Sequence record: SRR2962707_2488
DNA length: 45,907 nt
Reading direction: 5' to 3' (one strand)
Every line of letters begins with the position of its first letter. Position 1 is the stretch's first letter. The notes beneath the pieces are model-generated. The model was given only the letters and a program-made list of their open reading frames with translations. It did no database searches and was not told the DNA's origin. Shown here in pieces: positions 18,720 to 37,832 of this stretch. The position numbers and the translations under genes are program-made.

Positions 18720-21700
18720 TCAGTTGCCGAGGAAACCGTCGAGCTGGTTCCAAAGGGAATTGTCGAGCAACAGGTTAAAGCGGAGATAGAAACCTTCTTG
18801 GTAAAGTGCATTTTGCCCCGCCAGCGTTTCACCCGCCTTGTTGTAGCCAACCGCCAGCAGCGTGCCCTTGGTCGGGACGAATCCGAACTCGGCACCCAAT
18901 CCGTTGGTCGAGTTGCCAGTGCTATCCCAAAGATGCGCCACGTTTGCACCGACCTGAAACAGGTCATTCCCGAACTCATAGTTTACGCCCGCCTGCACCA
19001 ACTGGGTCCGCGACTTAGCCGCGATGCCACCCGACACGTCGATCGCTTGGTGCTGACCGGCGTATTTGCCGTTCACACGCAGATCGGCATCGACCTCGTA
19101 AGAGGCATTCGCCGACCACAGATGGCTTTCGGTCCGGTTGTACTTTTCCTCAAGGCGATGCTCGTACCAAGCGAGAACTTCGAGGCGCGGGTCGCTCAAC
19201 GGGCGGTAGGCCGCCCCGACGCGGGTGCGCATCCGCCGTTGGCTCTTGCCGTTTCGATTGTCCAACGCGGCCCGCGTGCGGCCCAGTACAGTCAGATCGG
19301 GTGTGACCTGCCCGGCAAGGCCCAGGCTGGCGTAATAGGTTTCGCCGGAATCTTCGGACGTGGCATCGAAATCCGCGTCCCCGATCCATTCACCATCACC
19401 GCCCCCCCATTTCACCCCAACGGCCAAGCTGGTCAGTTCGGTCTCGTTCGCGTCCAGCAGACGCGCATGTTCGATGCCTAGATCAAGCGTCGTCGTCTTG
19501 TTCAGTTTAAAGTCGGCATTCAGCCCCTGAATATAGGTCGTGTCGGTGTCACCCGGGCTACGGGCCAGTTCGGTCCGACCGCTGAGCCATTCGTTCATCT
19601 CGAAGGTAAAGCCAAGCGTGTTGCGGGACATCACGGCGTCGTCGCCAAAGTGTAGTTCGACCTCGTTATACGCACGCCAGCCCAGTTTCGGTTCGCTGTA
19701 AAGGCCAAGCGTCAGTTCGGTTGCCGCGCCGCTGCCCCCAAGGGGTTGGCGCAATTCGGCCTCGATCACAGTGCCGGCCCGGTTCTGCGGCGACCAATGG
19801 GCACCCAAGACCAGTGCCGTGTCGCTTTCGTTGTGATTTTGCGTAAGATTTTGGCGATGATCAAAGCCGATGCGGCCGCGCAGTTGCTTACTTAGGGTGC
19901 GCGCATAAAGCGCTTCGAACTGCAGGCGTTTGGTGTCGTTGATCCGGTCGCGGACGTATTCGGCAGCCAGTGTCAGGTCACTTTTGCGGTTGATCGCGTA
20001 GCCGTAGCTCAGCCGGATTTGGGTGCTGCCGGGACGGGCAAGCCCACCGCGCGCCAGAAAGTTTTCTCCGGTATGGATCGCCTCGAAGCTGAGCCGCTGG
20101 CGCTCTACCTGCAGCTCGTAAGATAACCGCGCGGCAGTGTCGGCTTCGCCCAGCGCGTTCTCTGAGCGGGCCAGCTCCGCCTCCCAGACCCCGCCGGTCG
20201 TGTCCTCGTGGCGAATGTATCCCGACTGCAGCCGCTCGCGGGCCGGGTTGCCGATTGGGGCGTCGGCATGCACCGCGCGGGCACCGATGGTCGTACGTTC
20301 GCCCACGGCGTAATTCGCCTCGCCGCCATAAAGCCAGTACTTTTCAGCACCCTCATTTTCGACCTCATAGGTGACACGGATCGACACCGGATTGCCGTCC
20401 AGATGGAACTGGCGGACGGGCGCGTCAAAGGTGATTGTGTTGCGAAAGAAATCGAGAATGTAATCCGTCCCCCGACGCATCGGGGTGCTCGTCAGGACAT
20501 CGTCACCCTGTTCGTCGCGAACCAGAACTTCTACCCTCTCTGAGCCTTGTACATAGCCGCTCAAATTCAAATCATAGGGACCCGAAACGCCGCGACCGCG
20601 GATTTCTTGCACCATCTGTTCCTGCGCCGTGCGGGCCCCAAAGACAGTGACCGACACCTTGTCGTTTTCCCAATGGCCCTTTGCCCCGGTGGCGACACGG
20701 CGCATCCCGTCCAGTTTGAACGCGCTGGATTCGGGTTCGATGGCGATGTCACCGTACAGGATGTAGGACCGGCCCTTTTCCACTTTGACGAAAAGGTTTT
20801 CCGACGATTGCGCGTCTTGACCCCGTTCGGAATTATCGCCGTAGACCGGGTAATACTGGTCGCCGCGGATGTCGCGGAACAGACGATCTTCGGTGTCGCG
20901 GTCCGAGCTGTAGCGCAGGGTCAACAGCGCATCGCCACGGATCGCACCTTTCAGGTAGACCTCGCCGCGCACGCCGGTTGCCGTGTCCTCAAAGGAACTG
21001 AACTGGTCTTTGTCCAGCAATCCGTCGCTGTTCTTGCCCAGCGATACAGCACCTTCGATCACACCAATTAGAATGCGTTCGTCTAGGTCAGGGGTAAAGA
21101 TAATGGTCGCCTCTGTGCTGCCAAATGCCCCCGTCACAGTAACAAGATCCGACCCCGATACTTGCGGCGGGATCAAGTCAAATGTCGCCTCGCCATTGTC
21201 GAGGTACGCCTGCACGCCGGGGGTGCCCGCACGAATATCGTCTACGTCCCACAAGCCCAAGCGCGCATGCAGCGTCACCGTCCCCGAGGCCGGAACCGGC
21301 ATCCCGCGCACGTCGAGTACACGCACCACGACGGGCACCACTGAGCCGGGCGAGGCCGAGGCAGTTTCCGGCAGGATGATCTCGTATTTTGCGGGGGTGC
21401 CCGGTGCCATCAGGGTGATGTCTTTGCGCGCACGTTCGATGCCGAACCCGTCCCTACCGATCAGGGTCAGCGTGTTTTTTCCCGCGCCCAGTTTAACGGC
21501 TATGTATTCCAGCGCTTGGACATTATTTTTCTCCCAGCTGGTACGTTCGCCAATACGGTCAGCGCCAAGTTCGCGACCGTTCAGCAACAGCGCCAGCGTG
21601 AGGTCGGCCTTGCCCTTCACCCGGATGTTCTGGGTGTTGCGGTCGACGGTCTGACCCTCCGCAAGGTCAACGAACCCCAGTTCGGAACCCAGTGTCCGGA

Positions 21701-24458
21701 TCATCTCGTCCAGTGATTGCCTCCGGGCCGCCGCTGCGGCCACGACGGCGACATTTGCGGCCAGCGCCTTGTCTGCGGTCAGCATGTTAGGGGTCAGCTG
21801 GGTTGTCGTCGCGATACCGGATTCCCCGCGCGAAGAACGGTTCGGTGCGCGCGCGCCTTCGATTGGCATATCGGCGGCGTTGAGTGAATTTACCTTCTGG
21901 TTATCTTTAAAATGCTCGCGACGCTCTGCGACTTCGACCAGCGCCTCGGGGGTGCATTCGGCCACGGCAAAGTGTTCTGCGCGCATTTCACCGCGACGCA
22001 GCGGGATCAAACGCGAGCCACCCTGCCCGAGATCATTGGTGCGTGTAACCTGAACGCGGGTGTCTTTGGGCAAGGTTTCATTCTGCACAAGAAACGCATG
22101 GGTGACCGGACGCAAACCATAGAGCGAGTATTTTCCGTCAATGTCGGTGACGACAGTCAGGCCCTCTTGTGTAACGATCCGGACGCCCGGGATGCCGGGT
22201 TCCGACGCATCGCCCCGGATACCATTCGCATCACAATCCATGAAGACCGACCCAATGACCGTACCTTGGCGTGCCAGAACCCCACCGGAATTGTCGAGCC
22301 GGACCATAGCCCGCGCAACGTTGGATTCGCGCAGCGTTCCCGTACCCGCCTGACGACCTGACAGTACGGCGGTGTTTTCGTTGCGCCCCTCGCGTGCGGC
22401 AGCCGTGAAATGCATTACATACGTCAGCTCGTGCTCGGACAGCGGCCCGATCTGGCCAAGATCAAAGCGCATGTCCCCCCCCTGCCCGCGCGCGGGATCC
22501 TCCAGCGGTTCGCCATCCAGCATGACCGATCCCGGCACCAGCGTCACACCATGCGGCGGGCGGTCCAGCAGTTCGGCACCGATAAGCGCCTGACGCATGT
22601 TGTTGCTAAAGCCCAGCGTATAGATCACAAATTCGCCTTGGCTCACGACATCACGGTCAGTCGCCTTCTGCAACGATAGCGGTGTCCCATAGTAGGGGTC
22701 GACGGGAATGTCCGAATTATAGACCATCCCACCGGCGTGGCTAAACGCGTCACCCCAACCTGCCTCGGTCGTGATCCTGGTGAACCCGGAAAAGTCGTTG
22801 CGTGACGATGGGAATACCCATGCCGGCGCGTTGATAACGTCATAGCGGTATGTGCCTGCAGGCATTTGGCCAAAGACGAAGAAGCCGCGTGGATCGGTGA
22901 CGCTGCGCGAAATTTCGCGGTTCAAGGCGACGTCAACCAGTGCGATCGTAATGCCCTCGATTGCCGCATTGGACAGCGAGTTAAATAGAAAATTGCCCGG
23001 ATTGATCAACAGGTCGTCAGTCAGCAACGTGCCGTTGCATCGGGCAGTCGCGATCAAGGTATCGCCATCGGTGGTGGCCATCACGCTATCGCCCGGTGTC
23101 GCGGTGTCCATGCGTGCCATCGGCAAGGCGGAGGTCAAGAAGATGCCTGTGTTTGCGCCGGTCTCGGTCGCGGTCACGGTCTCAATGTCGCCAGTCTGGG
23201 CGCTGCGGATGGTGACCGTCGTCACATCAACGCCAGAGGTCAGGTTACAGCCGCCCGATGTCAGGCGCAGACGGGTATCGGTGCCGGGCGTGCCAAAGGC
23301 TTGCATGGCCCCGGTGGCGGGCTCTTCGAAGTGCAGCGCACCAGAGCTGTCTCCATTGCGGGTAAAGATCGTCGTATTCGACGCCTGCACCGCACTTTGC
23401 CCGTCATTTTCAAGATAGGCAGCCGCCGTGTTCACAACATCCACATCACCGAGCGCAGCAGGCAGGCTGACCGAAAAGACGGGATCGGTCGCACGGCCAA
23501 CGATATAATCGCCTTCAAGAAAGAAACCCACGGCATCGATGTCTTCGACCCGCCCCGGCTGGGCCGTGCGGTAGTCATGTAGCGGATCGCCAGCGCTGTG
23601 AAACAGTGCCACCATGCCGCCGGTCTGGATAAAGCTGCGAAAAACAGTGTTAAGCGGGATCACGTCCCGGACCAGCACGCCGGTGCGGACGACACCGTCG
23701 ATGCGCAGCGTTTCGCCGTCGATGGCGGAATAGCCTATGATAGACTGTTCGGAGTTATTGCGGATCCGCAACGTGTAGTCGATCACAGTCGCCGCTTCGG
23801 TCTCGCGCGCAGATTGAACCTTTTCAATCTCAAGCGTACCGCTGACAATGAGTGTCTTGCCAAGCGCTTGGCCGTTTAGAGGGGCCTGGGTTTCGATATC
23901 GGCATCGGACGACGCGGTCACAAGAAGGGTCGAGCCCAGCGTATCGCCGGGAACCGCATTTTCCGAAACGCGGAATTCATAGATCAGCTGAAGACGCTCA
24001 CCCGCCATCAAAGTAATCGGTGCCGTCAGATCGAATGCTCTTTCGCCATCATCGACAACACCGTTGCCATTCTGGTCTGCCACCAATTGTCCATTTCCGG
24101 TCAGCCCTGCGCCGGTACGGTCTTCGACGCGCATGACCGCATCAAGCGGTACGTTCCCGCTGTTCAACACTTCAAAGTGGTACTGCGCCAACGCGCCACG
24201 GGTGAGCAAAAGTTCGGAGTATCCGGTGATCTCGATGTTCGGCACCGAAAGCACCCTCGCCTCGACCGGGTTGGAGAACACGGTCTCGACGATCCCGAGG
24301 GCGATATTGAAATAGGACGATTGTGCAACGTTGCGGATTAGGGTGCCGCCTGGAACCGGGTCTGCCTTGGATGGCTGGGGAAGAAGACCACACAGCAGCG
24401 CGACGGTCTGGAAGAACGTCGCGACACCGAGGCCCGCTTTCTGAAGACAACTGCGCAC
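18720..24458 (-). CDS. Large DUF11/SdrD-B-like protein with C-terminal outer-membrane beta-barrel (putative fimbrial anchor/usher)
   Basis: Signal peptide ending SKA; DUF11 repeats (LEIEKVQ..IDYTLRIRN, LSLQKAT..VIYTLGFSN); GSVFMDCDANG..EPGIPGV; C-terminal ~780 aa with alternating amphipathic beta-strand pattern. Confidence 0.75.
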   Translation of the reverse strand: MRSCLQKAGLGVATFFQTVALLCGLLPQPSKADPVPGGTLIRNVAQSSYFNIALGIVETVFSNPVEARVLSVPNIEITGYSELLLTRGALAQYHFEVLNSGNVPLDAVMRVEDRTGAGLTGNGQLVADQNGNGVVDDGERAFDLTAPITLMAGERLQLIYEFRVSENAVPGDTLGSTLLVTASSDADIETQAPLNGQALGKTLIVSGTLEIEKVQSARETEAATVIDYTLRIRNNSEQSIIGYSAIDGETLRIDGVVRTGVLVRDVIPLNTVFRSFIQTGGMVALFHSAGDPLHDYRTAQPGRVEDIDAVGFFLEGDYIVGRATDPVFSVSLPAALGDVDVVNTAAAYLENDGQSAVQASNTTIFTRNGDSSGALHFEEPATGAMQAFGTPGTDTRLRLTSGGCNLTSGVDVTTVTIRSAQTGDIETVTATETGANTGIFLTSALPMARMDTATPGDSVMATTDGDTLIATARCNGTLLTDDLLINPGNFLFNSLSNAAIEGITIALVDVALNREISRSVTDPRGFFVFGQMPAGTYRYDVINAPAWVFPSSRNDFSGFTRITTEAGWGDAFSHAGGMVYNSDIPVDPYYGTPLSLQKATDRDVVSQGEFVIYTLGFSNNMRQALIGAELLDRPPHGVTLVPGSVMLDGEPLEDPARGQGGDMRFDLGQIGPLSEHELTYVMHFTAAAREGRNENTAVLSGRQAGTGTLRESNVARAMVRLDNSGGVLARQGTVIGSVFMDCDANGIRGDASEPGIPGVRIVTQEGLTVVTDIDGKYSLYGLRPVTHAFLVQNETLPKDTRVQVTRTNDLGQGGSRLIPLRRGEMRAEHFAVAECTPEALVEVAERREHFKDNQKVNSLNAADMPIEGARAPNRSSRGESGIATTTQLTPNMLTADKALAANVAVVAAAAARRQSLDEMIRTLGSELGFVDLAEGQTVDRNTQNIRVKGKADLTLALLLNGRELGADRIGERTSWEKNNVQALEYIAVKLGAGKNTLTLIGRDGFGIERARKDITLMAPGTPAKYEIILPETASASPGSVVPVVVRVLDVRGMPVPASGTVTLHARLGLWDVDDIRAGTPGVQAYLDNGEATFDLIPPQVSGSDLVTVTGAFGSTEATIIFTPDLDERILIGVIEGAVSLGKNSDGLLDKDQFSSFEDTATGVRGEVYLKGAIRGDALLTLRYSSDRDTEDRLFRDIRGDQYYPVYGDNSERGQDAQSSENLFVKVEKGRSYILYGDIAIEPESSAFKLDGMRRVATGAKGHWENDKVSVTVFGARTAQEQMVQEIRGRGVSGPYDLNLSGYVQGSERVEVLVRDEQGDDVLTSTPMRRGTDYILDFFRNTITFDAPVRQFHLDGNPVSIRVTYEVENEGAEKYWLYGGEANYAVGERTTIGARAVHADAPIGNPARERLQSGYIRHEDTTGGVWEAELARSENALGEADTAARLSYELQVERQRLSFEAIHTGENFLARGGLARPGSTQIRLSYGYAINRKSDLTLAAEYVRDRINDTKRLQFEALYARTLSKQLRGRIGFDHRQNLTQNHNESDTALVLGAHWSPQNRAGTVIEAELRQPLGGSGAATELTLGLYSEPKLGWRAYNEVELHFGDDAVMSRNTLGFTFEMNEWLSGRTELARSPGDTDTTYIQGLNADFKLNKTTTLDLGIEHARLLDANETELTSLAVGVKWGGGDGEWIGDADFDATSEDSGETYYASLGLAGQVTPDLTVLGRTRAALDNRNGKSQRRMRTRVGAAYRPLSDPRLEVLAWYEHRLEEKYNRTESHLWSANASYEVDADLRVNGKYAGQHQAIDVSGGIAAKSRTQLVQAGVNYEFGNDLFQVGANVAHLWDSTGNSTNGLGAEFGFVPTKGTLLAVGYNKAGETLAGQNALYQEGFYLRFNLLLDNSLWNQLDGFLGN

Positions 24459-24555: not shown

Positions 24556-27204
24556 TTAGTTGCTCACCTGAACAGTGAATTCTAACCTTGCGACCCCACC
24601 CGGCAGGATCGAGCCATGATCGCTCGATACGCTGGTCGAGGTGACCGTTGCGGTGCTACCTGCCGGGAATAGATCCTCGTCGCAAAGGCCGCCACAGTTT
24701 GTCACTGCGGTATATGCGGGCGCTGCGTCAGAGATGACGACGTTGGTTGCGGGAGAAGAGCCGGTGTTCTCTGCCTCGATCATGTAGCGTATGCACTGAC
24801 CGGGTTCGACAGGTTGACGGGTCTTGGTGAACGCGCTGTCCGGCGTAGTGGCACCATCACAATCAGCATCGATCGTCTGATACTTGTTCAGCGTCATATC
24901 CCCCGAGATGATAGTGATCCGGTCCTCGACCGCGTTGTCGGTGGTGTCGGCATCCGTAGCAGTACCCCCGTTCAGCGCCGCCCCGAGGCTGAGCGAACCG
25001 ATTTCGGTTACACCTGGCGTCGCCGTCGACGGTGTCTGCACACGGTAGATCAGCGAGATGCTATCCCCCGCAGCAAGGCCATTGACGCCGGGCGCAATGC
25101 CGTCTGTCAGGTCGTCAAAGTTGTCGATCACCGGCTCGGCTGCATCGATCACCCCGTTACCGTTCACGTCCCAAAAGATCGCGCCCGAGAAGTTGCTTAG
25201 ACCGCTTTCAAGGATTGCCCCTTCGGTGATGACTGTATTGCCTTCGTTGGTGACCGTGTGGGTCAACTCAACGATGCCACCGGGTGCGGCCTGCGCGCTT
25301 TGGTCGTCGATGATCTTTACGTCGTAGATTTCGTTGACCGTGACCTGGTTGACGATGCGGTCACCCTGACCGGACACCGAAGATACCAGCGCGATATCGA
25401 CCAGCGTATCGCTCGGAAGCGTGTCATCAGCCGGAACCACGACAACCTGGAAGGTCGAGCTACCATCTGCCGGAATGGTCCCGGTGTTGGTGGCAATGCT
25501 GCCGTTGGCTGCGCGGAACTCGACAGTCCAGCCATCAGGCAGCGCCTGAGCCAGCGACAGGTTGAAGCTGTCAGAGACCGGACCTTCGTTCTGCACCACC
25601 ATGTCGAACGTGACAGGTTGGCCTGGATCGGTTGTCGTGGTGATCCACGGATCGCCTGCGTTGGTCGGCACCGCGCCATCGCCCTCGACACCTGCAACAC
25701 CGTTCTCAAGATCGACCGTAGCTGCAAGAACCTCTCCGGAGAATTCGGCGGTCGACACATCCGACACGCCTGACGAGTCAGAGATCGTGGTGATCGTCGC
25801 CGTGTAATCGGTGGTGGCGGTCGGTGTCAGGTCGGTCGGAAGCGTCGCGATCAGGGTTACCTTGGCACTGCCTCCGATTGCGAGCGGGCCAATCGAACCG
25901 ACGACCGGGGTCACACCGTCGGCACCGACAAAGCGGAATGTCGTGCCTGCGGGAAAGTCGACGTTGGCGACCTGCAGTGTCATGCTATCGGCCTGATTGG
26001 AAAGATTGGTCAGCACAAACTCCTGACGGATCACGCCGCCCTGATAGACATCTCCGGTCTCGGTCACGATGTCGTTGTTGGCCGCATCATCATCCGTTGC
26101 CGAAGCGATGGTGCCGTTCGCGGTTCCGTCCCCGTTGATCGCCGTATCCGCAACCGCAATCGCGTATTGGTTATCGACCACGATCGAGGCGGTGTTCGAC
26201 GGTGGAAAGGCAACCCCGTCTACGTCTTGGCTGGCCACGTTGGTGATCAGGCCCGCGTTGGCAGTGCTGGCGACAACCGCTTGGAACGTCACGCTGCCAG
26301 AGCGGCCCGAAGCAACGGAAGAGATATTGAAATTAACCGTCTGTCCATCGTCGTAATCCCAGGCGATGGTTTCGCCCGACCCGTTGGTGCCATCGGCAAG
26401 CGTCGAGGCGTTGTCGTCATCCAGCGGGGCTGCCGCGTCGGACCATCGCGCCGATCCCGGCACATAGGACAGATTGCCGTCCAGAACGTCCTGCACCACA
26501 TAGTTATTCGCAGCAGCCAGACCGGTGCTGGAGTAGGTCAGGGTGATGGTCACGGTGTCGCCCGCATCAATGATGTCAGGGTTGCCGCCCGAAGCGGCAT
26601 CCGCGACCATCGACTTGACCAGTTCGACGATGGCGTCGTTCGAAATGGTCAGGGTATCCGTGTTGATATCAAGTTCAGTGCCGTCTAGCGCCGACGTCGC
26701 AGTGATGGTGATCGTGTCGGTGCCAGTCGCGGTCGACGCGACAGAGGCTTCGATGACCACACCGAACTGCTCGCCGGGAGCCAGAACCGGGGTGGACGTC
26801 AGCGGTGTCGCGCTGTCGGCAACGCCGTCCATGTTGGCATCCGGATAGAACACCAACTGCGTCGTATCAAGTGTACCGGTGTCGGCCTCGACCGCAGTCA
26901 GCAAGAAGCTGTCAGCCCCGTTGCCTTCGTTGGTGATGATGTGCGGCAGGAATGCTTTCCCACCGGGTGCAATGGTTTCGGTGTTGTCAGATGTCAGTGT
27001 GACGCCGGCAACCTGCTGCACGATCGTTTCGACCGTGTTCGACGTCACCGTGATCGTGTCACCGGCCGAGTTGGTATATGTCGCAACAGCTTGGTTGCCG
27101 ATAACTGCGCCTGCTTCGGGGGACGCGCCGAACGCAGCAGATCCGAGGGCGGCACCAACGGCTGCCGCACTTGCGGAACGCATGAAGAGAGAATGATAAG
27201 CCAA
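24556..27204 (-). CDS. Secreted multi-Ig/DUF11 protein (putative major fimbrial shaft subunit)
   Basis: Signal peptide ending AFG; Thr/Asp/Gly-rich Ig-like repeats; one complete and one C-terminal incomplete DUF11 domain; AAGGA RBS with TTG start (alternative ATG 27183). Confidence 0.8.
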   Translation of the reverse strand: MAYHSLFMRSASAAAVGAALGSAAFGASPEAGAVIGNQAVATYTNSAGDTITVTSNTVETIVQQVAGVTLTSDNTETIAPGGKAFLPHIITNEGNGADSFLLTAVEADTGTLDTTQLVFYPDANMDGVADSATPLTSTPVLAPGEQFGVVIEASVASTATGTDTITITATSALDGTELDINTDTLTISNDAIVELVKSMVADAASGGNPDIIDAGDTVTITLTYSSTGLAAANNYVVQDVLDGNLSYVPGSARWSDAAAPLDDDNASTLADGTNGSGETIAWDYDDGQTVNFNISSVASGRSGSVTFQAVVASTANAGLITNVASQDVDGVAFPPSNTASIVVDNQYAIAVADTAINGDGTANGTIASATDDDAANNDIVTETGDVYQGGVIRQEFVLTNLSNQADSMTLQVANVDFPAGTTFRFVGADGVTPVVGSIGPLAIGGSAKVTLIATLPTDLTPTATTDYTATITTISDSSGVSDVSTAEFSGEVLAATVDLENGVAGVEGDGAVPTNAGDPWITTTTDPGQPVTFDMVVQNEGPVSDSFNLSLAQALPDGWTVEFRAANGSIATNTGTIPADGSSTFQVVVVPADDTLPSDTLVDIALVSSVSGQGDRIVNQVTVNEIYDVKIIDDQSAQAAPGGIVELTHTVTNEGNTVITEGAILESGLSNFSGAIFWDVNGNGVIDAAEPVIDNFDDLTDGIAPGVNGLAAGDSISLIYRVQTPSTATPGVTEIGSLSLGAALNGGTATDADTTDNAVEDRITIISGDMTLNKYQTIDADCDGATTPDSAFTKTRQPVEPGQCIRYMIEAENTGSSPATNVVISDAAPAYTAVTNCGGLCDEDLFPAGSTATVTSTSVSSDHGSILPGGVARLEFTVQVSN

Positions 27205-28798: not shown

Positions 28799-29419
28799 TC
28801 AGACAAAACCGGCGTTGCGGGCGATCATCGCGGCGTCAGTGCGGTTTCGTGCGTCCAGCTTGCGGCACAACGTCTTGACGTGCAGCTTGATCGTGACTTC
28901 CTGAAGATCAAGGTCGCGGGCGATTTCCTTGTTGGATTGTGCGCTCATCAGCCCGCGCAGCACTTGGCGTTCACGCTCGGACAGGTCTTTCTCGAAATCC
29001 GTCTCGTCCGGATCGTCCTTGCCCGACATGAAATTGACTGGCGCATAGGTTTCCCCCGCAGCCATGAACCGTACGGCATTCACCAACGATTTTGCCGGCA
29101 GCGTCTTGGGAAGGAACCCGATCGCGCCCATAGCCAGCGCCTGTTCCGCGATCAGGCGGGTCGCCGTGCCAGAAATCAGGCCCACCGGTTTGCCGCCATT
29201 GGCGTTCAGGGCAATCTTCAACCCCTCCAGCCCCTTCATACCGGGCATCGTATAGTCGAGCAGGACCAGATCGAACGGACCGTCTGACCGAATTTTTTGC
29301 AAAGCTTCTTGCAGATTGCTGGCCGGAACGGTTTGCGCCGCACCGTCCATATCCAGAAACATCGCGATGGTCTCGCGGACCATATCGTGATCGTCTGCGA
29401 TCAGAATTTTCAGAACCAT
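28799..29419 (-). CDS. LuxR/NarL family DNA-binding response regulator
   Basis: ILIADDH, DLVLLDYTMPG, LSERERQVL...SNKEIARDL...TIKLHV HTH. Confidence 0.95.
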   Translation of the reverse strand: MVLKILIADDHDMVRETIAMFLDMDGAAQTVPASNLQEALQKIRSDGPFDLVLLDYTMPGMKGLEGLKIALNANGGKPVGLISGTATRLIAEQALAMGAIGFLPKTLPAKSLVNAVRFMAAGETYAPVNFMSGKDDPDETDFEKDLSERERQVLRGLMSAQSNKEIARDLDLQEVTIKLHVKTLCRKLDARNRTDAAMIARNAGFV

Positions 29420-29842: not shown

Positions 29843-32380
29843 ATGAACGTCGTCAGACTATCCCGCCATAATCGCACATGGGGTAGATGCCTGCTGGTTC
29901 TGGCCCTCTTGGTGGGAATCCTGGTCGCAGGGCACATAATGTTCAGCCTTTGGAAAAGAATCCACGCGATTGACAGCGCGCAGGTGGATCACGCCGAATG
30001 GGTCTATACCCAGCTCGAAGTTGAATATCTGAAACTCGACAGGGCCATTGTCAGGGCGCGATCCGGAAATCCTGGGGATCTGGCAGACTTGCGGCAGCAG
30101 TTCGATATCTACTACAGCCGTACCGAAATTGCCCAAAATGCTGGAACAACCGGAGACGCCTTTTCCGACCTTGACCGTCTTCGGGATGTTCTGGATGAAC
30201 AGGTGCAGTTGGTTCGCGCGGGCGACACGCGCCTTTTCGATGGTCTGGACGAACTGCAAAATGCGTTGGGTCAAACCGGCGACATTCCCCGAAATGTTGC
30301 ACTGGCCTCTGTCTCATTGGCGGTGGACGTGGCTAAGGCCGAGCGCGGTGAGATCGTCAGACTTCTTGAAATACTGTCTGTTGTCGTCTTGGTCGTAACC
30401 GTTGCGCTGATAAGCGCGATCATTCGGCTTTTGGTTCAGGCCAACACCGTCAGTCGGGCATCCCGCGACGCCAAAGAACACCACCTTCGGCTGGCGACCA
30501 TGCTGCGCGCGTCTTTGGATGCGATTGTAGTCTCTGATGAAAACGGGTCCATCCTGGATTTCAACGGCTCTGCCGAAGACATCTTCGGGCTGGACCGCCA
30601 GGACGTTATTGGTGGCCACTTTATTGACCTTCTCATCCCGCCACACTTGCAAGAAGAACTAAATACGGCTCTCGAAGCGTTCCGCCGCACCGGCAAACCA
30701 CAAATTGCGGAAAGCGGACGGCGCGAACTTGAGATGATCGACAGTGATGGCCGCGTTTTTCCTATCGAATTGTCGGTGTCGCTGGCCCAGAGCAAGGATG
30801 GCCCGATTTTCGTTTCCTATATTCACGACATCACGGACAGAAAGCAAAAAGAACAAGAAATCGTTCAGGCGCGCGATGACGCTCTTGCCGCTTACCGCGA
30901 AAAATCCCGTTTTTTCGCGATGATGAGCCACGAAATGCGCACGCCTCTGAACGGCGTTCTCTCGGCGCTCCAACTTCTGGGGGATGGTCGGCTGGATGCG
31001 GAGCAGCAGAAATATCTTGATGCCGCGCTGACGTCCGGGGATATCCTGTTGGGCCACATCAATGATGTGCTCTCTATTGAACGCAGCGAAGCTGACCGGA
31101 GTGAACAGCAAACGCAATCTTGCAATATGGTGGCGCTGACATCGGGTGTGATCGACAGCATGGGGCCGCTGGCGCAGCATACCGGCAATCGGCTGCATCT
31201 TGATCAAACTGGGCTGGATGATCGATGCATCCTGACCGACCCTCGGGCGGTGCACCAGGTTCTCGTGCATCTTCTCAGCAATGCGATCAATTTCAGCCCT
31301 GATGGCGACATTACCCTTCGTGCCTTGTATCGGCATGCCGACGATGAAAGCTTGCTCCTGCATTTTGAAGTCAGCGATACGGACATCGACGTGACCGAAG
31401 CTGATGTTCCTCATCCCTTCGAAGATTGTATTGCGCTCGACAGCAGCTATGAACGTCCGGCCGGAGGCAGCGGGCTGGGCCTTGAAATTGTGCGCCGTCT
31501 GGTTCAGGGGCTTGGTGGCGACATCAGGTGTGAATCCCGCGCGGGACAAAATTCCCGCTTCATTGTGTGCCTGCCCGTCACCCTCGCCTCAACATCCAAT
31601 ACGCCTGCGCCTTCAGCACCACAGGTGGAAGAGGCACACGGAAAATCGTTGCACCTGTTGGTCGTCGATGACAACCAGATCAACCGCGAACTTCTCGGGG
31701 CAATACTCAAAAGACTTGGGCACATCGTCAGCGTCGCCACCGGAGGGCAAGAGGCTGTCGACCTTGCCAAAAGCACACGGTTTGATGCCATCCTCATGGA
31801 CATCTCGATGCCCGGCATGAACGGCATCCAAGCGACCAAGGCGATCTTGGACGGCGACGGACCGAATAACCAGACGCGCATCATACCCGTCACAGCCCAT
31901 GCCCAGCCCAAAGAACGCGAGGAATTTGAAGCCGCAGGCATGAAAGGTTTCCTGCAAAAACCGCTCAACATGGAAGCGCTAAAATCTGCGTTGGCCGCTT
32001 TCTCTTCTGCTGAAAACGCGCCCGCCGAAAACCAAACTCTACGGCAACAACCTGTGCTGAACAGTGCGCATGTCACGGAACTGCGGGAATTGCTGGGGCA
32101 GGATAGGTTGAAGGATCGTATCATGATGCTGTTGCAAAGCGTCGATGCCGATCTTCCCGACCTCACAAACACGCAAACCATTTTGGATCTGCAAACACGG
32201 GCCCATGCTTTGGGCGGCATGTGCGGCATGTTCGGAGCCGAGCGTTTTCACGTTCTCCTTAGTGAAGTCGAGACCGCGTGCAAGGAAGGCAATACCCGCG
32301 AAGCGCACGAGCTTGTCAAATTGGCACCGGCGGTCTGGCATCTAACAAGAGAAGCTTGGTTGCAACAAATCGGTGCATGA
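29843..32380 (+). CDS. Hybrid sensor histidine kinase (TM-PAS-HisKA-HATPase-REC-HPt)
   Basis: Two TM segments, PAS domain, SHEMRTPLNG, REC (VVDDN..ILMDISMP..KP), HPt AHALGG; degenerate G1 box DTDID. Confidence 0.9.
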   Translation: MNVVRLSRHNRTWGRCLLVLALLVGILVAGHIMFSLWKRIHAIDSAQVDHAEWVYTQLEVEYLKLDRAIVRARSGNPGDLADLRQQFDIYYSRTEIAQNAGTTGDAFSDLDRLRDVLDEQVQLVRAGDTRLFDGLDELQNALGQTGDIPRNVALASVSLAVDVAKAERGEIVRLLEILSVVVLVVTVALISAIIRLLVQANTVSRASRDAKEHHLRLATMLRASLDAIVVSDENGSILDFNGSAEDIFGLDRQDVIGGHFIDLLIPPHLQEELNTALEAFRRTGKPQIAESGRRELEMIDSDGRVFPIELSVSLAQSKDGPIFVSYIHDITDRKQKEQEIVQARDDALAAYREKSRFFAMMSHEMRTPLNGVLSALQLLGDGRLDAEQQKYLDAALTSGDILLGHINDVLSIERSEADRSEQQTQSCNMVALTSGVIDSMGPLAQHTGNRLHLDQTGLDDRCILTDPRAVHQVLVHLLSNAINFSPDGDITLRALYRHADDESLLLHFEVSDTDIDVTEADVPHPFEDCIALDSSYERPAGGSGLGLEIVRRLVQGLGGDIRCESRAGQNSRFIVCLPVTLASTSNTPAPSAPQVEEAHGKSLHLLVVDDNQINRELLGAILKRLGHIVSVATGGQEAVDLAKSTRFDAILMDISMPGMNGIQATKAILDGDGPNNQTRIIPVTAHAQPKEREEFEAAGMKGFLQKPLNMEALKSALAAFSSAENAPAENQTLRQQPVLNSAHVTELRELLGQDRLKDRIMMLLQSVDADLPDLTNTQTILDLQTRAHALGGMCGMFGAERFHVLLSEVETACKEGNTREAHELVKLAPAVWHLTREAWLQQIGA

Positions 32381-32626
32381 AAACACGTGTGTCTGGCCCG
32401 GCAACGCAGCATCGCGGTTAAAACCTATCCGTCAGCATAGGTAAATTACTCCACCGCGCCGCAGCACCCACTGTCATTATGATTTATAACGATCTTACTA
32501 CCGCCGAATACTGTATATCAGAAGCAACAGATAGGGTCGTTTCCATTCCGGACTATGCTCCAACACCGTCCGTTCTGGCCCCAGAGCGACCATATCGCCA
32601 TCACCAATGGTGTTGTTTTTGAAATG

Positions 32627-32663
32627 CCGCTCTTCTGGTCACAGAAGAGCGGTCCTTTTTTTT
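32627..32663 (+). terminator. Rho-independent terminator
   Basis: 11-bp perfect stem CCGCTCTTCTG-gtca-CAGAAGAGCGG followed by TCC and T8. Confidence 0.8.
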
Positions 32664-32975
32664 GTACAGATGCATTTTCGCGCAGCCGGTCCCCTGACGA
32701 TCTTCGCCACTCAAAAATCCCCGGAACCCAGCGCGCTTGGGCCAATGCAACGCTATCCCAAAGCATAGCGACGCTATGCGCGGCGGTATCGTTGATGTCC
32801 CTCTGAACCTTCGCACAACACACGGCACCCTGCGACACTGGTCAGGATCGAAACCCACCGCAAAACCACGCTCCGGCAGTAAGGCCCTATGCGCAGGGCC
32901 CCTGCCCGCCTGCTGCGGAAACCAAGAACGATAAACCCGGTGCCAAACCAAAAGGCGGATGAAGTGTTCAAGCAC

Positions 32976-35900
32976 ATGTCAAAACGACTATTGCGTCACC
33001 TGTGCGGCTGCACAGCGGCGATTGCAGCGCTGGTGGCATCCGAACTGCAGGCTGGCGATTTCACGCTAGACTGGGGGCAGATCGACTGGCCGGCGGGATC
33101 ATCCGCGCCGCTGACCACCACGTTGACGGATCAATACGGGTTCGAAATTGATGCGACAGTCAATGTTGCGGGCGCTTTTACGACGGGCGGCGGTATCGTG
33201 TCGCCGGACGACACGTCCCTGCTGGGCGGCAGCGTGCCATCGCTTGGCTTAGTCTCTGACGCACCGGCCAATCTGGGGCGGGTCGGCGATGCCACGGTCA
33301 GTGCGCAACTGACCTTTTCATCAAACAGCGTTGCCTTTCCGGTAGACGGGCTGGTGCTCGACATTCTGGACGTCGACGCTGGCGACGCAAACGCGCCCAG
33401 TGACAGTTGTGACTTTATCACGGTGACTGGCACCAATGGCGATCCAACCCTGTCGGCCGTCTCGTCGACGCCGACCTTCGTCCTAGGACCCGGCGCTGGT
33501 AGCGGTCTCACCGGACCGTTGGCCGCCAATCAGGCGCAATGTATCTTTGTCGATGGGCTGGCGGGCTCTCCGACCTCGGCCAACACCGATACCGGAACCG
33601 TTCGCGCGACATTTCCGGACGGTACTGCGTCGGTCACCGCCGTTTTTGATGAATCCATCGGCAATGTCAGAACATCCCTTGGCTATGACGCCGCCGCGCG
33701 GGACATCGGTTTTCTGGCAGCCAGTTCTTTTTCCGTCGGCCAAAGCATCTCGCTGGTCAAAACCTCGGAGCCGAACGAACTTCCCGAGCCGGGAACCACG
33801 ATCACCTACACATACTTTGTCACCAACGACGGGTCGCTGCCGTTCAACATAGGGCAGGATATCGTGATCGTGGACGATTCCGTTGCCACCGTTACCTGCC
33901 CTGCGATCACCGCCGAAGTGCCGGTCGGCGGCACCCTTGAATGTACCGCTGAATATACCGTGACCGTCGTGGATGTCCTAAATGGCAGTCTGACCTCGAC
34001 GGCGACGGCGGGTATCGGCCCGATTGGTCAGACCTTCGACGACCGACTGCAATCCAACGCCGCGACACTGACCCTGCTTTATGCGCTGGGTTATGATTTC
34101 GGCGATGCCCCCCTTACCTATCTGGTGCCATCCCACGCCCTTGTCACAGCCCCGACGATCTACCTTGGCACCATTGCCCCCGACGCCGAAACCTTTGCCC
34201 AGCCTGACACGACCGCCACTGGCGACGATGTGAACAACAGCGACGACGAGGACGGCGTCACCCTGCCGCTGCTGACACAGGGCACCATCGTCACGATCAC
34301 GGTCAATGTGGCGGGCGACGGGTTTCTTCAGGCGTGGATGGACTTTGACGGCAACGGATTGTTCGCAAACGACGCGCTGGAGCGTCTGGCCACGGACCTG
34401 CGCGACGATGGCCTTGGCGATGACATCGCGGCCGGGGACGGCGAGATCCAGATCAGGATCACGGTGCCTGACGACGCAACCACCTCGCTTACCTTTGGCC
34501 GCTTCCGCTGGGCCTCCGAGGCCGGACTGGGTATCTCGGGTGCCACGCTTGACGGCGAGGTCGAGGATTATTCCTTTGTCATCGCCGCTGCAGATCTTGT
34601 CGACCGGGGGGACGCGCCCGCCAGCTATGGTGATCCGCGCCATGTGGTGGTGCCGACGATCTACCTTGGCAGCGGATCACCCGATCTCGACATCTCGGCA
34701 AAGTACTCTGCCGGTGCCGATGGTGACGATCTTGACGGTATCGACGACGAAGACGCGACGAGTTTTCCGCCGCTTGTGGCGGGCACCACCGTGCCACTGA
34801 CGGTATTGACCCACGAGACGCAGAGCTTTCTGTTCGACTTGGGCCTGCCTGTGCTGGTGCCGGGTATCACCAACCTGCAAGTCTGGGTCGACTTCGACCA
34901 GAACGGTACTTTCGACCCGGCTGAACAGGTGGCGGTCAACTACCGCGATGGTGGGACCGGCGACACCGATGGCAGGTTCAACAACCAGATCACGCTGAAC
35001 ATTCCCGTTCCTGCGGACGCCATCGCCGGCCCCACCTATGCACGGCTGCGGTGGTCCACGACCAGCGGCCTGATTACTGATCCATTCGACGGGCTTAACT
35101 TGGACGGTGAGGTCGAAGATTACTTCGTCACGGTGATTAACCCCAACGGTCCGCTGACCTGTTCTTCGAATTTCTATATGGTCGCGACTGAACCGGGCCA
35201 GAACCTGCCCGCGCTGGACGAGCTATCAATCAGCGAAAGCGGCGGAATCTATACGCTGACCCATGTTGATCTGCCACCCAACTACACGGGCAACTTCCTT
35301 GTTACCGGCTGGGGCTATAACGAGTTGGACGGCTTTATCTATGGCGTACGCCAAAGCCCCCGGTCGCTGATGCGGATCGACGCGTCGGGCGCTGTGACCG
35401 AGGTCGCGGACCTGTCCACCCTCAGCATCGAAGCCCCCGACACCAGTTCCGACATCCTGCCCAACGGTATCATGATCTACATGTCCGGGTCCGACTCTAG
35501 TCGGTACCAACTGCTCGATATCAGCGACCCGGCAAATCCGGTTGCACTGGGGGTGCTGACCGCCACCGCCGGCGCGACCTATAGCCGTGACATGGCCTAC
35601 AACCCGCTGGACGGGCTGATCTACTTCTTTGACACCTCGCGCAACTTGCACTTTTTCGATCCCAACAACGGCGTACCGGGGTCGATCACAGTCGGTCTGC
35701 TGGCAAACGTGCCCCTGGCCGAGGGCAAGTTTTCGATGGACATCGACTCGGTCTGGTTCGACGGCTCGGGGTACATGTACGGCTTTGACAACCAGTCCCG
35801 GCAGGTCTTTGCGGTCGAGGTCGGCGCAGAGGGCAACCGCCCCGCCAGCTACGAATTTATCGAGGTACAAGGCACCGTCGACAACATGACCTATCAGGGG

Positions 35901-37832
35901 AATGACGGCGCATCATGTCGCGCGCCCGGCCCCTTTGTGTCGTCGGTCCTGCAAGAGGGCGCGATTTCCGGCACGCTTTACGAGGATACCAACAACTCCG
36001 GCACGCTTGATGCTGGTGAAACGGGCTTGCCCGCAGGCATTACAGTCACGCTCTTTGATGACAATGGCACGCCAGCCGACCCTGCCGATGACACGCTGGC
36101 ATTGACGGTGGAAACCGCCGCCGACGGCACCTATCTCTTTGGCTCGGTCAATTCGACGCTGACCTACCGCATCGAAGTTGACGAGACCGACCCTGAAATT
36201 CCGGCCGAGCTTGACCTGTCGACCGCCAATCCGCTGACCGGTGTGGCAGTGGTCACAAATGCCGATACCAGCGATCAGAACTTTGGCTTTGTGATCGCAC
36301 CCTCGGTCGCGGATTTGTCGCTGACGAAATCCGCCGTCAGCGCCGCAGACGGGCTGCCCGTAACGCAGGCCACTGCAGGCGAGGCGCTGGATTTTGTCCT
36401 GACGGTCACCAATGACGGACCGGGCGACGTCACTGGCGTGCAGGTACGGGATCTGATGCCCGATGGCTTTGCCTATGTCTCAGACGACGCGGTGGCACAG
36501 GGCGATACCTACGACAGCAGCACCGGAATATGGGCCGTCGACACCCTTGCGAATGGCGCAAGCGCCGCGCTGACGATCCGCGTCACGATGCGCGACAGTG
36601 GTGAACATACCAACACCGCCGAAATCGTGGCCAGCTCTCTGCCTGACCCCGACAGTGACGTCGCGGTCGGTGCCTTGGTCGACGATCAGTCTGACGGGCT
36701 GGCTGACGATGACGAGGCAAGCGTATCCGTGGCATATGCCGGCACCGGTGCGACCCTGTCTGGTGTGGTATTCCTTGATAATGGTGCCGGGGCTACGGCC
36801 TATGACGGGGTGCAGGGCGGGGGCGAAACCAGCACCAACCGTGCCCTGATCAAGATCACCAACAGCGCAGGTGAACTGATCGGCTCACCCGCCGTCGCCG
36901 CCGATGGCAGCTGGAGCCTGACGCTCCCCGACACTTATGCCGATGCCGTCACCGTCACTGTCCTGCCCGACCAAGGACATCGCCCCGTGTCGGAAACTGC
37001 CGCCGCGCTGCCCGGTACTGTAAACGCTGATCCGCGCGACGGAACATTGACCTTTACCCCGGCGGCGGGCACGTCCTACAGCGACCTGAACTTTGGTATG
37101 ATCGTCGAGGCACGTCTTAACCTTGACCAGCAGGCGGCCATCCGCCCCGGTCAGGTGGTGTCTCTGCGGCATGAATACATCGCCGATGCCACAGGCACGG
37201 TGACCTTCACCGTCGACGCCGAAACCAGTGCAACGCCCGCAGCCTTCTCGACCGCGCTGTTTCTGGACACCGATTGCGACGGCACCGCCGACACGCCGGT
37301 CAACGGGGCGATCGCCATAGAGGCCGGGACGGCCCTGTGCATTTTGGCACGCGTGTCGTCATCCTCTGCCGTCAGTCCGGGCGCGAGCTACAGTTTTGAA
37401 CTTGTGGCCGACACGTCCTACGGCACCTCGGGACTAACCGAACAGGATCGCAACACCGACCGCGTGACAGTGGAATCGTCACAAGGTGCGATCAAGCTGA
37501 CAAAAACCGTGCGCAACGTCACCCAAGGCACCGCCGAAGGGGTGGCCAACGGGGCAGCAGTCGGGGACATTCTAGAATACCGGATCTATGTTAAGAATAC
37601 GGGCACCCTGCCGTCATCGGATCTGATCATCTACGACAGGACGCCCCCCTACACCGTGCTTGCCACCGCCGTGCCAAGCCCGGTTTCCTTGGGCAGCGAC
37701 GTGACGTGCAGCAGCTCAACGTCGGGTTCGGATAGCGCGGGGTATGCCGGAAATCTACGCTGGGATTGCACCGGCCTCTTTCAACCGGGCGACGAGGGAT
37801 CCGTGACATTCGAGGTAAGGGTTTCACCCTGA
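32976..37832 (+). CDS. Large secreted adhesin-like protein with GEVED x2, propeller-like, SdrD-B-like and DUF11 domains (putative fimbrial tip)
   Basis: Signal peptide MSKRLL..ELQA (alternative GTG start 32964); two DGEVEDY motifs; WGYNELDGFIYG..GNDGASC; ISGTLYEDTNNSG; DLSLTKS..VTNDGP; C-terminal incomplete DUF11. Confidence 0.8.
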   Translation: MSKRLLRHLCGCTAAIAALVASELQAGDFTLDWGQIDWPAGSSAPLTTTLTDQYGFEIDATVNVAGAFTTGGGIVSPDDTSLLGGSVPSLGLVSDAPANLGRVGDATVSAQLTFSSNSVAFPVDGLVLDILDVDAGDANAPSDSCDFITVTGTNGDPTLSAVSSTPTFVLGPGAGSGLTGPLAANQAQCIFVDGLAGSPTSANTDTGTVRATFPDGTASVTAVFDESIGNVRTSLGYDAAARDIGFLAASSFSVGQSISLVKTSEPNELPEPGTTITYTYFVTNDGSLPFNIGQDIVIVDDSVATVTCPAITAEVPVGGTLECTAEYTVTVVDVLNGSLTSTATAGIGPIGQTFDDRLQSNAATLTLLYALGYDFGDAPLTYLVPSHALVTAPTIYLGTIAPDAETFAQPDTTATGDDVNNSDDEDGVTLPLLTQGTIVTITVNVAGDGFLQAWMDFDGNGLFANDALERLATDLRDDGLGDDIAAGDGEIQIRITVPDDATTSLTFGRFRWASEAGLGISGATLDGEVEDYSFVIAAADLVDRGDAPASYGDPRHVVVPTIYLGSGSPDLDISAKYSAGADGDDLDGIDDEDATSFPPLVAGTTVPLTVLTHETQSFLFDLGLPVLVPGITNLQVWVDFDQNGTFDPAEQVAVNYRDGGTGDTDGRFNNQITLNIPVPADAIAGPTYARLRWSTTSGLITDPFDGLNLDGEVEDYFVTVINPNGPLTCSSNFYMVATEPGQNLPALDELSISESGGIYTLTHVDLPPNYTGNFLVTGWGYNELDGFIYGVRQSPRSLMRIDASGAVTEVADLSTLSIEAPDTSSDILPNGIMIYMSGSDSSRYQLLDISDPANPVALGVLTATAGATYSRDMAYNPLDGLIYFFDTSRNLHFFDPNNGVPGSITVGLLANVPLAEGKFSMDIDSVWFDGSGYMYGFDNQSRQVFAVEVGAEGNRPASYEFIEVQGTVDNMTYQGNDGASCRAPGPFVSSVLQEGAISGTLYEDTNNSGTLDAGETGLPAGITVTLFDDNGTPADPADDTLALTVETAADGTYLFGSVNSTLTYRIEVDETDPEIPAELDLSTANPLTGVAVVTNADTSDQNFGFVIAPSVADLSLTKSAVSAADGLPVTQATAGEALDFVLTVTNDGPGDVTGVQVRDLMPDGFAYVSDDAVAQGDTYDSSTGIWAVDTLANGASAALTIRVTMRDSGEHTNTAEIVASSLPDPDSDVAVGALVDDQSDGLADDDEASVSVAYAGTGATLSGVVFLDNGAGATAYDGVQGGGETSTNRALIKITNSAGELIGSPAVAADGSWSLTLPDTYADAVTVTVLPDQGHRPVSETAAALPGTVNADPRDGTLTFTPAAGTSYSDLNFGMIVEARLNLDQQAAIRPGQVVSLRHEYIADATGTVTFTVDAETSATPAAFSTALFLDTDCDGTADTPVNGAIAIEAGTALCILARVSSSSAVSPGASYSFELVADTSYGTSGLTEQDRNTDRVTVESSQGAIKLTKTVRNVTQGTAEGVANGAAVGDILEYRIYVKNTGTLPSSDLIIYDRTPPYTVLATAVPSPVSLGSDVTCSSSTSGSDSAGYAGNLRWDCTGLFQPGDEGSVTFEVRVSP

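Follow-up and report, generated by a model that had tools for sequence, protein, structure and literature searches.

A DUF11 (CLIPPER) domain divided between large secreted proteins and its possible use in joining them into a surface fiber

Results

Donors and acceptors of a divided DUF11 domain

A stretch of DNA of 45,907 nucleotides from sequence record SRR2962707_2488, here called the window, encodes an operon of four consecutive minus-strand genes for proteins of 170, 882, 1912, and 237 amino acids (aa) and, on the plus strand, a further large protein of 1647 aa. An earlier reading of the sequence, the original prediction, had proposed that these large proteins form a pilus by donating and accepting parts of DUF11 domains. 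The 882-aa subunit (24556..27204, minus strand) has a signal peptide, an N-terminal donor β-hairpin (residues 27-62; 27019..27126, minus strand), about seven immunoglobulin (Ig)-like domains, and a C-terminal acceptor DUF11 domain that has no hairpin of its own (residues 769-882 and the stop codon; 24556..24900, minus strand). The 1912-aa protein (18720..24458, minus strand), a putative anchor, begins with a signal peptide and a donor hairpin (residues 33-69; 24252..24362, minus strand), followed by an Ig-like stalk of about 1,050 aa and a C-terminal predicted outer-membrane barrel. The 170-aa protein (27260..27772, minus strand) is a secreted single-domain protein; its acceptor-type DUF11-like domain lacks both the last hairpin and the catalytic Asp. 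The 1647-aa candidate tip adhesin (32889..37832, plus strand) has a signal peptide and no donor hairpin, and it ends in an acceptor domain (residues 1535-1647 and the stop codon; 37491..37832, plus strand). Translations of these four donor and acceptor ranges agree with those in the original prediction.

Pfam places DUF11 (PF01345, cut-off 24.6 bits) in all three large proteins, with scores of 38.5 bits in the 882-aa, 91.4 bits in the 1647-aa, and 27.8 bits in the 1912-aa protein. The other Pfam domains are NEW3-like in the 882-aa protein; SdrD_B and CarboxypepD_reg-like in the 1912-aa protein; and DUF7507, two GEVED, DUF6923, and SdrD_B in the 1647-aa protein. The conserved cluster belongs to marine bacteria akin to Sulfitobacter, and a contig of Sulfitobacter sp. 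CW3 has 100% identity across the 882-aa protein. The TTG start of the 882-aa gene at 27204 is backed by residues conserved before Met8 in orthologues ('..Y[HQ]S.F[ML]R[ST]..'), and the position of Met8 is a Leu in one orthologue.

The C-terminal DUF11 domains of the 882-aa and 1647-aa proteins end early. In Pfam, the last 114 residues of the former correspond to positions 9-84 of the 114 in the profile and the last 113 residues of the latter to positions 13-84; a complete DUF11 copy in the 1647-aa protein extends to position 105. Orthologues from five genomes have the same early stop, with the profile ending at 84-86. The hairpin peptides of 36-37 aa had no Pfam match when searched alone because they are too short. 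We therefore compared parts cut from family alignments with HHalign. Against the intact internal DUF11 domain of the 882-aa family (residues 188-346), the C-terminal domain (residues 765-882) aligns to positions 27-125 of 159 (expect value (E) 2.6e-12) and stops directly before the last hairpin. The N-terminal segment (residues 28-64) aligns to positions 132-158 of the same 159 (E 1.6e-5), and no match of it to domain 1 (E 0.08) or the C-terminal domain (E 0.63) was seen. The 1912-aa protein, aligned with 23 orthologues, has a homologue of this 882-aa segment at its N-terminus (E 4.5e-12). On the acceptor side, the C-terminus of the 1647-aa protein (window and eight orthologues) matches the 882 C-terminal domain through its last residue (E 9.2e-18). 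A third acceptor-type domain, one that the original prediction does not mention, is the mature 170-aa protein, whose match to the 882 C-terminal domain runs to the last residue of both (E 1.1e-6).

There are two homologous donors and three acceptors, and the acceptors all stop at the same structural position. The split anatomy is real and far beyond chance. Both Pfam and the profile comparison bear out the earlier claim that the C-terminal DUF11 domains of the 882-aa and 1647-aa proteins lack the final segment. The assignment of the 1647-aa protein as acceptor only, the 882-aa protein as donor plus acceptor, and the 1912-aa protein as donor plus barrel also stands, by HHalign and by the barrel model described below. 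One part of the original prediction needs amending, as the donor is a two-strand hairpin and not a single strand.

The 882-aa protein belongs to a large family. An exhaustive search returned 1596 representatives at E ≤ 1e-3, of which 308 reach E ≤ 1e-30. Lengths of 820-1030 aa are found for 134 of the best 150 representatives, and most align over their full extent. Their source names are only those of 'beta strand repeat-containing', 'NEW3 domain', and 'DUF11 domain' proteins; one representative of the family is from Gracilimonas. A strict pattern for the N-terminal motif is found in 114 of the 134 length-matched representatives, the other 20 being motif variants by eye. Conservation was scored in a 140-row alignment of the family, with about 30-48% identity. 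At least 90% conserved are A31, I35, N37, A39, A41, Y43, S55, N56, V58, and T60 in the hairpin, and K774, Q776, P801, G802, N813, G815, D826, P829, F876, and V878 in the acceptor end.

These features bear on an explanation in which the proteins are ordinary independent adhesins. Their C-terminal domains would be stable alone, the hairpin would cap domain 1, and the 1912-aa protein would be a large autotransporter-like adhesin. Proteins with DUF11 stalks are common fibrillar adhesins, and some DUF11 copies are without the isopeptide triad (PMC12617251). The order of passenger then barrel is also like that of autotransporters. However, the match of the hairpin profile is to the DUF11 end rather than to domain 1, the three acceptors share their stop position, the two donors are homologous, and the hairpin is near-invariant among proteins of about 30% identity, with the triad split between the parts. 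We consider independent adhesins very improbable.

Two fused relatives are found among the best 150 representatives, P0137 (2023 aa) and P0126 (3865 aa), in which the unit is repeated in tandem. The order in one chain is an acceptor end ('...FGVQI..'), a linker of 6-10 aa, the hairpin motif, and the next domain 1. These fusions carry the proposed trans topology in cis and so support head-to-tail joining of the separate proteins. Both P0126 and P0137 end in a segment that by eye is dockerin-like ('...DPNCD...DDLTIV...FGR.Y'), which suggests a different attachment mode.

The Lys-Asp-Asn triad is divided with the domain

DUF11 was renamed CLIPPER in a 2025 paper, and the structure PDB 9IFR shows an intramolecular isopeptide bond between Lys715 and Asn806 with Asp748 as the catalyst (PMC12617251). 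The Asp number given there is one off from a count on the printed 9ifr alignment. When 9ifr is aligned with the profile of the 1912-aa family, the Lys falls in the first strand and the Asp in the 'D.L' strand. The Asn falls in the 'I.N.A' strand, with which the last DUF11 hairpin begins.

We looked for these residues in intact and split copies. Domain 2 of the 882-aa protein, which is intact, has K197, D239, and N322, and the triad is present in 130 of the 140 rows. For the split copy of the same protein, K774 (24883-24885) and D826 (24727-24729) are on the acceptor and N37 (27094-27096) is on the donor hairpin. All three are found in 137 of the 140 rows and each individually in 138. The tip acceptors have the Lys and the Asp (Lys1539, 37503-37505, and Asp1583, 37635-37637, in the window) in nine of nine rows, comprising the window and eight orthologues, and in 12 of 13 paralogues by eye. 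The hairpin of the 1912-aa protein has the Asn (Asn43, 24330-24332) in 23 of 24 sequences, the window and 23 orthologues. In the alignments, then, the DUF11 triad is divided, with Lys and Asp on the acceptor and Asn on the donor, a feature that the original prediction had overlooked along with the isopeptide nature of DUF11. Counted by protein, the 1912-aa protein has three Asn-bearing hairpins versus two Lys/Asp cores, the 1647-aa and 170-aa proteins each have one core more than hairpins, and the 882-aa protein is balanced with two of each.

Since the Lys and Asp are on the acceptor and the Asn is on the hairpin, insertion of the hairpin probably triggers an intermolecular isopeptide bond. 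Judged from these residues, the chances that the joint between proteins is a covalent, sortase-free Lys-Asn isopeptide are about evenly balanced. The 170-aa protein differs from the other acceptors. In its 21 orthologues the Asp position is Ala in 19 and Gly in two, and there is no conserved Lys in the first strand. Given the missing Asp, this acceptor probably binds hairpins reversibly, as a cap or chaperone. We infer that it binds them without ligating.

A docking model of the hairpin in a foreign acceptor

The original prediction held that the N-terminal peptide of the 882-aa protein completes an 882-aa C-terminal domain. For the 882-882 pair, which is the pair covered, we modeled residues 765-882 in complex with residues 28-190 of a partner, a construct that lets the hairpin choose its own domain 1 or the foreign acceptor. 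The hairpin docked into the acceptor. The interface score ipSAE (interaction prediction score from aligned errors) was 0.87 in three of three runs, compared with 0.28 for the best of three controls; that mark is attained by 51 of 78 solved complexes and two of 108 mismatched pairs. The runs share at least 97% of their contacts, and the partner has a predicted local distance difference test score (pLDDT) of at least 90.

On the partner side, the interface consists of the hairpin (residues 28-63), residue 65, and residue 95, the sole contact inside domain 1. On the acceptor side it consists of residues 768-776, 794-801, 817-832, and 866-882. K774 is paired with hairpin residues 39, 55, 56, and 58, and N37 lies inside the interface. 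In the model, the hairpin leaves the domain of its own chain and fills the C-terminal domain of the other chain, which supports binding. The gap between this pair and its best control also argues against independent adhesins.

Distribution of the operon and of tip-type modules

To determine how well the gene set is kept, we surveyed 31 loci around homologues of the 882-aa protein, from Rhodobacteraceae and one Neomegalonema bin. The 170-aa gene is present at 30 of the 31 loci, the sole miss being a contig cut inside the 882 gene. The 1912-aa gene is present at 29, with both misses at contig ends; at L009 and L010 it matches only in part. The 237-aa gene is found at 25 loci, and a LuxR-type regulator adjoins the operon at 26. 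A 1647-like gene lies less than 10 kb from the operon at about 17 loci, one short fragment included. The gene set named in the original prediction is kept across these loci and in distant genomes.

Three distant genomes encode related operons, and a 170-aa-type gene is present in all three. In G115 the module genes code for proteins of 167, 966, and 1962 aa. There the barrel gene is followed by a gene for a 347-aa protein (L040, G115:C70, 10700-11743) with a C-terminus that is OmpA-like by eye, a different peptidoglycan-linked accessory standing where the lysozyme-like gene would be. In G333 a 175-aa gene is followed by the start of a subunit at the contig end. G194 has a variant operon (L041, G194:C1, 2854-10588, minus strand) for proteins of 333, 162, 352, and 1679 aa. 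The 333-aa and 352-aa proteins are short subunits, each with a hairpin and an acceptor, the 162-aa protein is a small acceptor, and the 1679-aa barrel protein has an N-terminal hairpin-like segment with a weak match. This operon adjoins a short gene that by eye encodes a response regulator. Both short subunits have a Gly/Ser-rich linker of 30-40 aa ahead of the acceptor domain. The 1912-aa family also extends beyond the Rhodobacteraceae to Rhizobiales, Roseitalea, and Usitatibacter, with no functional names.

Each of the nine operon-carrying genomes, among 301 sampled genomes of the family, encodes one 882-type gene. A single gene would fit a fixed short stalk, a three-piece adhesin of defined length made from an anchor, an 882-aa link, and a tip (or the 170-aa protein as cap), each present once and joined by the same hairpin insertion. 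The donors and acceptors can pair one to one, and the 882-aa subunit alone is already about seven domains long. We nevertheless find a fixed length rather doubtful. In the docking model the 882 acceptor takes up the 882 hairpin with confidence, P0137 and P0126 have the unit fused in tandem, G194 has two distinct donor-plus-acceptor subunits, and no sequence feature would bar self-addition.

We searched the same 301 genomes with the C-terminal 248 aa of the 1647-aa protein (residues 1400-1647) for the tip-type module. It is encoded in all nine operon-carrying genomes and in only one of the 292 others, a distribution that is also difficult to reconcile with independent adhesins. Fisher's test gives 2e-16, but the genomes are related and so this is not a true probability. 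The modules are often unlinked to the operon, and each genome has one to four of them, in frames that span 1054-2072 aa. In 13 of 14 copies retrieved, the protein stops 0-2 residues past the match and has the same last strand. Among the genomes without the operon, a tip-like match is found only in G538 (G538:C21:27889-29600; L053, L057), at 35% identity. The canonical last strand of this copy is replaced by about 40 unrelated residues before the stop, and the copy may be decayed. Large proteins in G628, G411, G567, and G601 share the C-terminal module of about 250 aa and differ elsewhere. The proteins with this common module look like a set of exchangeable tip adhesins.

The anchor barrel and the accessory proteins

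The C-terminal part of the 1912-aa protein (residues 1073-1912) was folded with AlphaFold2 (AF2) using 42 aligned relatives. The model is all-β, with a mean pLDDT of 80.7 and a predicted template modeling score (pTM) of 0.74. It has about 40 strands in residues 1129-1898 (18765..21074, minus strand), a small inserted β-domain at about 1288-1356, and a final C-terminal helix. The 1912 C-terminus thus models as an outer-membrane barrel region of unusual size.

Fold searches returned outer-membrane barrels as the only structural matches of this model. Foldseek found generic large barrels (LptD, MtrB, SlpA, PapC) with template modeling (TM) scores of 0.17-0.26. In a wide search with VIA-align, maltoporin came first (Z 14.1), followed by FimD (13.0) and PapC (12.0). 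In a second look with VIA-align, FimD chains were at the top (Z 15.3, 15.0, 14.3, and 14.1; 348-359 residues aligned; root-mean-square deviation (rmsd) 10.5-12.6), with maltoporin at 14.1 and porins at about 13, within about one unit of FimD. The autotransporter barrels of AIDA-I, BrkA, and Hbp scored Z 9.4-10.1, below the porins. A profile of the 1912 family compared with PDB sequences matched passenger domains only (SdrD B, 9ifr) and neither a barrel nor an usher. By its fold, the barrel is possibly related to ushers.

The 237-aa secreted protein (17754..18467, minus strand) is lysozyme-like. In PHROGs it matches phrog_90, an endolysin (E 2.4e-16), and phrog_430, a tail lysozyme (E 4.8e-4), with nothing found in Pfam or in the PDB sequence and profile searches. 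From these matches it is likely a peptidoglycan-remodeling accessory, and a secreted peptidoglycan hydrolase fits a bulky structure crossing the wall. It was dropped as the chaperone of the system. Of the chaperone in the original prediction there remains the 170-aa acceptor without the catalytic Asp, whose role as a chaperone is putative. By its residues, this protein is a candidate for a non-ligating cap or chaperone of donor hairpins or for a minimal distal cap.

A model for fiber assembly

Taken together, these observations suggest that separate proteins are joined by hairpin insertion into a fiber or stalk, which we consider probable. What computation shows is the split anatomy and how it is kept, a docking model, fused relatives, and the joint occurrence of the parts; a surface location, the order and number of subunits, the covalent bond, and the roles of the barrel and of the 170-aa and 237-aa proteins are inferences from these. 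The computation largely bears out the earlier pilus model, which is sharpened by the divided triad, by the relatives with fused units, and by the tip modules that accompany the operon. We propose a modular surface fiber whose separate proteins would be linked head to tail, each link completing a split Ig-like domain of the DUF11 (CLIPPER) family. An acceptor DUF11 without its last two strands would receive the β-hairpin that is located right after the signal peptide of the next protein. Each join would then be one more domain in a continuous tandem-Ig stalk, with a nick. From distal to proximal, the order would be a 1647-like tip (acceptor only), at least one 882-aa subunit, and the donor-only 1912-aa anchor. 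The Ig-like stalk of the anchor leads into the very large C-terminal barrel, which would anchor the fiber and may also pass it. Hairpin insertion would complete the Lys-Asp-Asn site and probably trigger a spontaneous intermolecular Lys-Asn bond, an exchange-and-lock without a sortase. The 170-aa acceptor would act on hairpins as a reversible cap or chaperone. The peptidoglycan is probably opened by the lysozyme-like protein of 237 aa, and a LuxR-type response regulator and an adjacent 845-aa putative sensor kinase probably control expression.

Several observations weigh against this model. The 882 family is sparse, being found in nine of the 301 sampled genomes of the family and in five of 401 from the phylum. 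In the 882-aa protein family (about 132 effective sequences), covariation by mutual information does not favor pairs of a hairpin and a C-terminal column, which make up six of the top 50 versus 6.9 expected. As to the bond, the tip paralogue L046 lacks both the Lys and the Asp, three of the 140 rows of the 882 family lack part of the triad, and K774-N37 is not among the 25 lowest-error contacts listed for the docking model. The docking pass itself may be partly memory of the solved intact DUF11 fold (9IFR), and the docking model is blind to cis versus trans and to the true partner among relatives. A translocon role for the barrel is a guess, with no specific fold match. In an AF2 monomer of the whole 882-aa protein (80 alignment rows; mean pLDDT 87.4, pTM 0.66), the hairpin has a pLDDT of 85-91 and the linker at 765-769 is below 50, and this model is compatible with a hairpin closing on its own C-terminal domain.

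Such a closure in cis is unlikely in our view. The 882 hairpin would complete, and perhaps staple by an isopeptide, the C-terminal domain of its own chain to give a closed monomer. Only the 1912 hairpin would pair elsewhere, with the tip or the 170-aa protein, and the product would be an anchor-tip adhesin with no polymeric shaft. The confident hairpin, the low-confidence hinge, and the fairly high pTM of the monomer model are consistent with this, as are the balanced count of two hairpins and two cores in the 882-aa protein and the inability of docking to separate cis from trans. The Gly/Ser-rich linkers of the G194 subunits could also permit folding back. Foldseek with the full 882-aa model found generic tandem-Ig arrays (TM 0.10-0.25) and is silent on ring closure. 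However, in P0137 and P0126 the hairpin after the acceptor leads onward to the next unit and not back. The docking model has only residue 95 of domain 1 in contact with the acceptor, as in a linear array. Closure would also leave the best-conserved gene of the operon unlinked to the ever-present anchor and tip.

Comparison with known systems

The original prediction noted the absence of usher, PapD, and sortase, and this was upheld by Pfam on the cluster and by searches of five operon-carrying genomes. The usher family (PF00577) had no match in the 1912-aa protein and none in the five genomes, and PapD_N (PF00345) was likewise found in none of the five; the positive controls for both were found in E. 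coli. PF00345 and PF02753 had no Pfam match on the 170-aa, 237-aa, or large proteins. Sortase (PF04203) was found in none of the five genomes and in the controls from three Gram-positives. The proteins carry no LPXTG-type sorting signal at their ends ('...FTVQVSN', '...FEVRVSP', '...YRVRVD'). No lipobox is present in the 882-aa, 1912-aa, and 170-aa proteins, which have Ala-X-Ala-type signal sites with no Cys after them. Pfam also returned no FimA/Mfa family (type V pili of Bacteroidia) in the cluster and no autotransporter β-domain (PF03797) in the 1912-aa protein. No TasA/BsaA or SipW-type family was found for the cluster proteins in Pfam, NCBIfam, or PHROGs.

The proposed fiber has the logic of chaperone-usher pili (type 1 and P pili, with FimA/PapA subunits, FimH/PapG tips, the PapH terminator, the FimC/PapD chaperone, and the FimD/PapC usher). 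Its tip would be only an acceptor, its subunits both donor and acceptor, and its last subunit only a donor, an outer-membrane barrel would sit at the base, and the polarity would be the same, with the N-terminus towards the tip. Unlike in those pili, the donor is a two-strand hairpin (about the last 27 DUF11 positions) and not one strand. The subunits here are 880-1900 aa and multi-domain with only the last domain split, whereas pilins there are single-domain. Here the donor-only subunit and the barrel are one protein, and the barrel is predicted to have about 40 strands where an usher has 24. FimD tops the matches of the barrel model, yet only about one Z unit from plain porins and with an rmsd of 10-13 Å. 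The 1912-aa protein also resembles type Va autotransporters and inverse autotransporters (intimin/invasin) in combining an Ig-like or repetitive passenger and an outer-membrane barrel in one polypeptide. As in type Va, the passenger is N-terminal to the barrel. The barrel region here, however, is about 770 aa with about 40 predicted strands versus 12, and the passenger has a free donor hairpin.

Man-made split isopeptide domains are also similar. In isopeptag/pilin-C and SpyTag/SpyCatcher, which derive from Gram-positive pilin or adhesin domains, a strand with one reactive residue is detached, and the parts reconstitute and ligate spontaneously. The divided DUF11 domain would be a natural version of such pairs that serves assembly.

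The closest natural parallels to the proposed joint come from unrelated folds. 'Donor strand exchange and lock' has been described for BsaA fibers of Clostridium perfringens, of the TasA family (10.1101/2024.11.04.621531). There, as proposed here, an N-terminal donor enters the next monomer, and a spontaneous intermolecular isopeptide forms between an Asn of one chain and a Lys of the other, which also supplies the catalytic acid; the triad is conserved in a subset of that family. BsaA differs in its TasA-like fold, small single-domain subunits, monoderm host, and SipW and type IV pilus-linked secretion, and it has no outer-membrane barrel and no separate tip or anchor. The archaeal thread Saci_0406 shares head-to-tail donor-strand complementation, with proposed intermolecular isopeptides and no known sortase (PMC9715654). 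Its bond, however, joins Asn57 of subunit n+2 and the N-terminal amino group of Asp24. The fold is again an unrelated one, and the host is an archaeon with no membrane barrel in the system. CLIPPER (DUF11) adhesin stalks share with the proteins in the window the domain family, the triad positions, and the role of a stalk module in long surface proteins (PMC12617251; 9IFR). Their bond lies within one chain, whereas here one copy per protein is divided between chains.

The words 'split' and 'donor' do not occur in the text of PMC12617251, and 'DUF11' is absent from the first 300,000 characters of a 2026 review. We found no description of this system in the literature, subscription journals and supplementary files being outside the search. 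Literature matches to tafi, F-ENA, grappling hooks, the T11SS, and Brucella are, as far as their accessible text goes, unrelated to it.

Donor-strand exchange and exchange-and-lock are already known from unrelated folds, and the novelty is in the parts and the envelope machinery. We tentatively propose, as something that may well prove otherwise, a new pilus class of outer-membrane bacteria with huge multi-domain subunits and covalent sortase-free ligation by a naturally split CLIPPER domain. The terminating subunit would include the barrel of about 40 strands, and the fiber would be assembled tip first through this barrel and then plugged and anchored by it, usher and terminator in one protein. 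The dead 170-aa acceptor would be a donor-capping chaperone, and interchangeable tips would share a docking module. If true, this would be a fiber-building route in outer-membrane bacteria beside the chaperone-usher, type IV, curli, and type V routes, and the first case among such bacteria of subunits ligated covalently without a sortase. It would account for hundreds of proteins of about 880 aa ('DUF11 / beta strand repeat / NEW3 domain') and for their partners of about 1900 aa, all lacking a functional annotation, in Rhodobacteraceae, Rhizobiales, Usitatibacter, Gracilimonas, and many metagenomes. For bacteria of the roseobacter group, which live on algae and particles, it would also be a candidate attachment organelle with exchangeable tips. 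New orthogonal protein-ligation tags could be made from the natural donor-acceptor pairs, among them one with a non-ligating acceptor.

Regulatory and neighboring genes

Upstream of the operon the window encodes a single-domain response regulator (28255..28713, plus strand; Pfam Response_reg) and a LuxR-type response regulator (28799..29419, minus strand; Pfam Response_reg and GerE), and the latter likely controls the cluster. The 845-aa protein between the operon and the tip gene (29843..32380, plus strand) is, by a by-eye reading of its translation, a hybrid sensor histidine kinase, with homologues at most of the 31 loci surveyed.

Just past the 237-aa gene lies a gene for a 650-aa protein (15076-17028, minus strand) with no Pfam match, in a stretch of lower G+C (0.47 in 16-18 kb). 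The protein has an acidic region and then a hydrophobic tail at its C-terminus, and its homologues are near the operon at five of the 31 loci. The tip gene is flanked by genes for a TctC/TctA tricarboxylate transporter (38809-42019) and a TetR regulator (37975-38646). Further genes of the window are ordinary metabolic ones and code for an aldehyde dehydrogenase, an EamA transporter, a molybdopterin oxidoreductase subunit, and a TPR-sulfotransferase.

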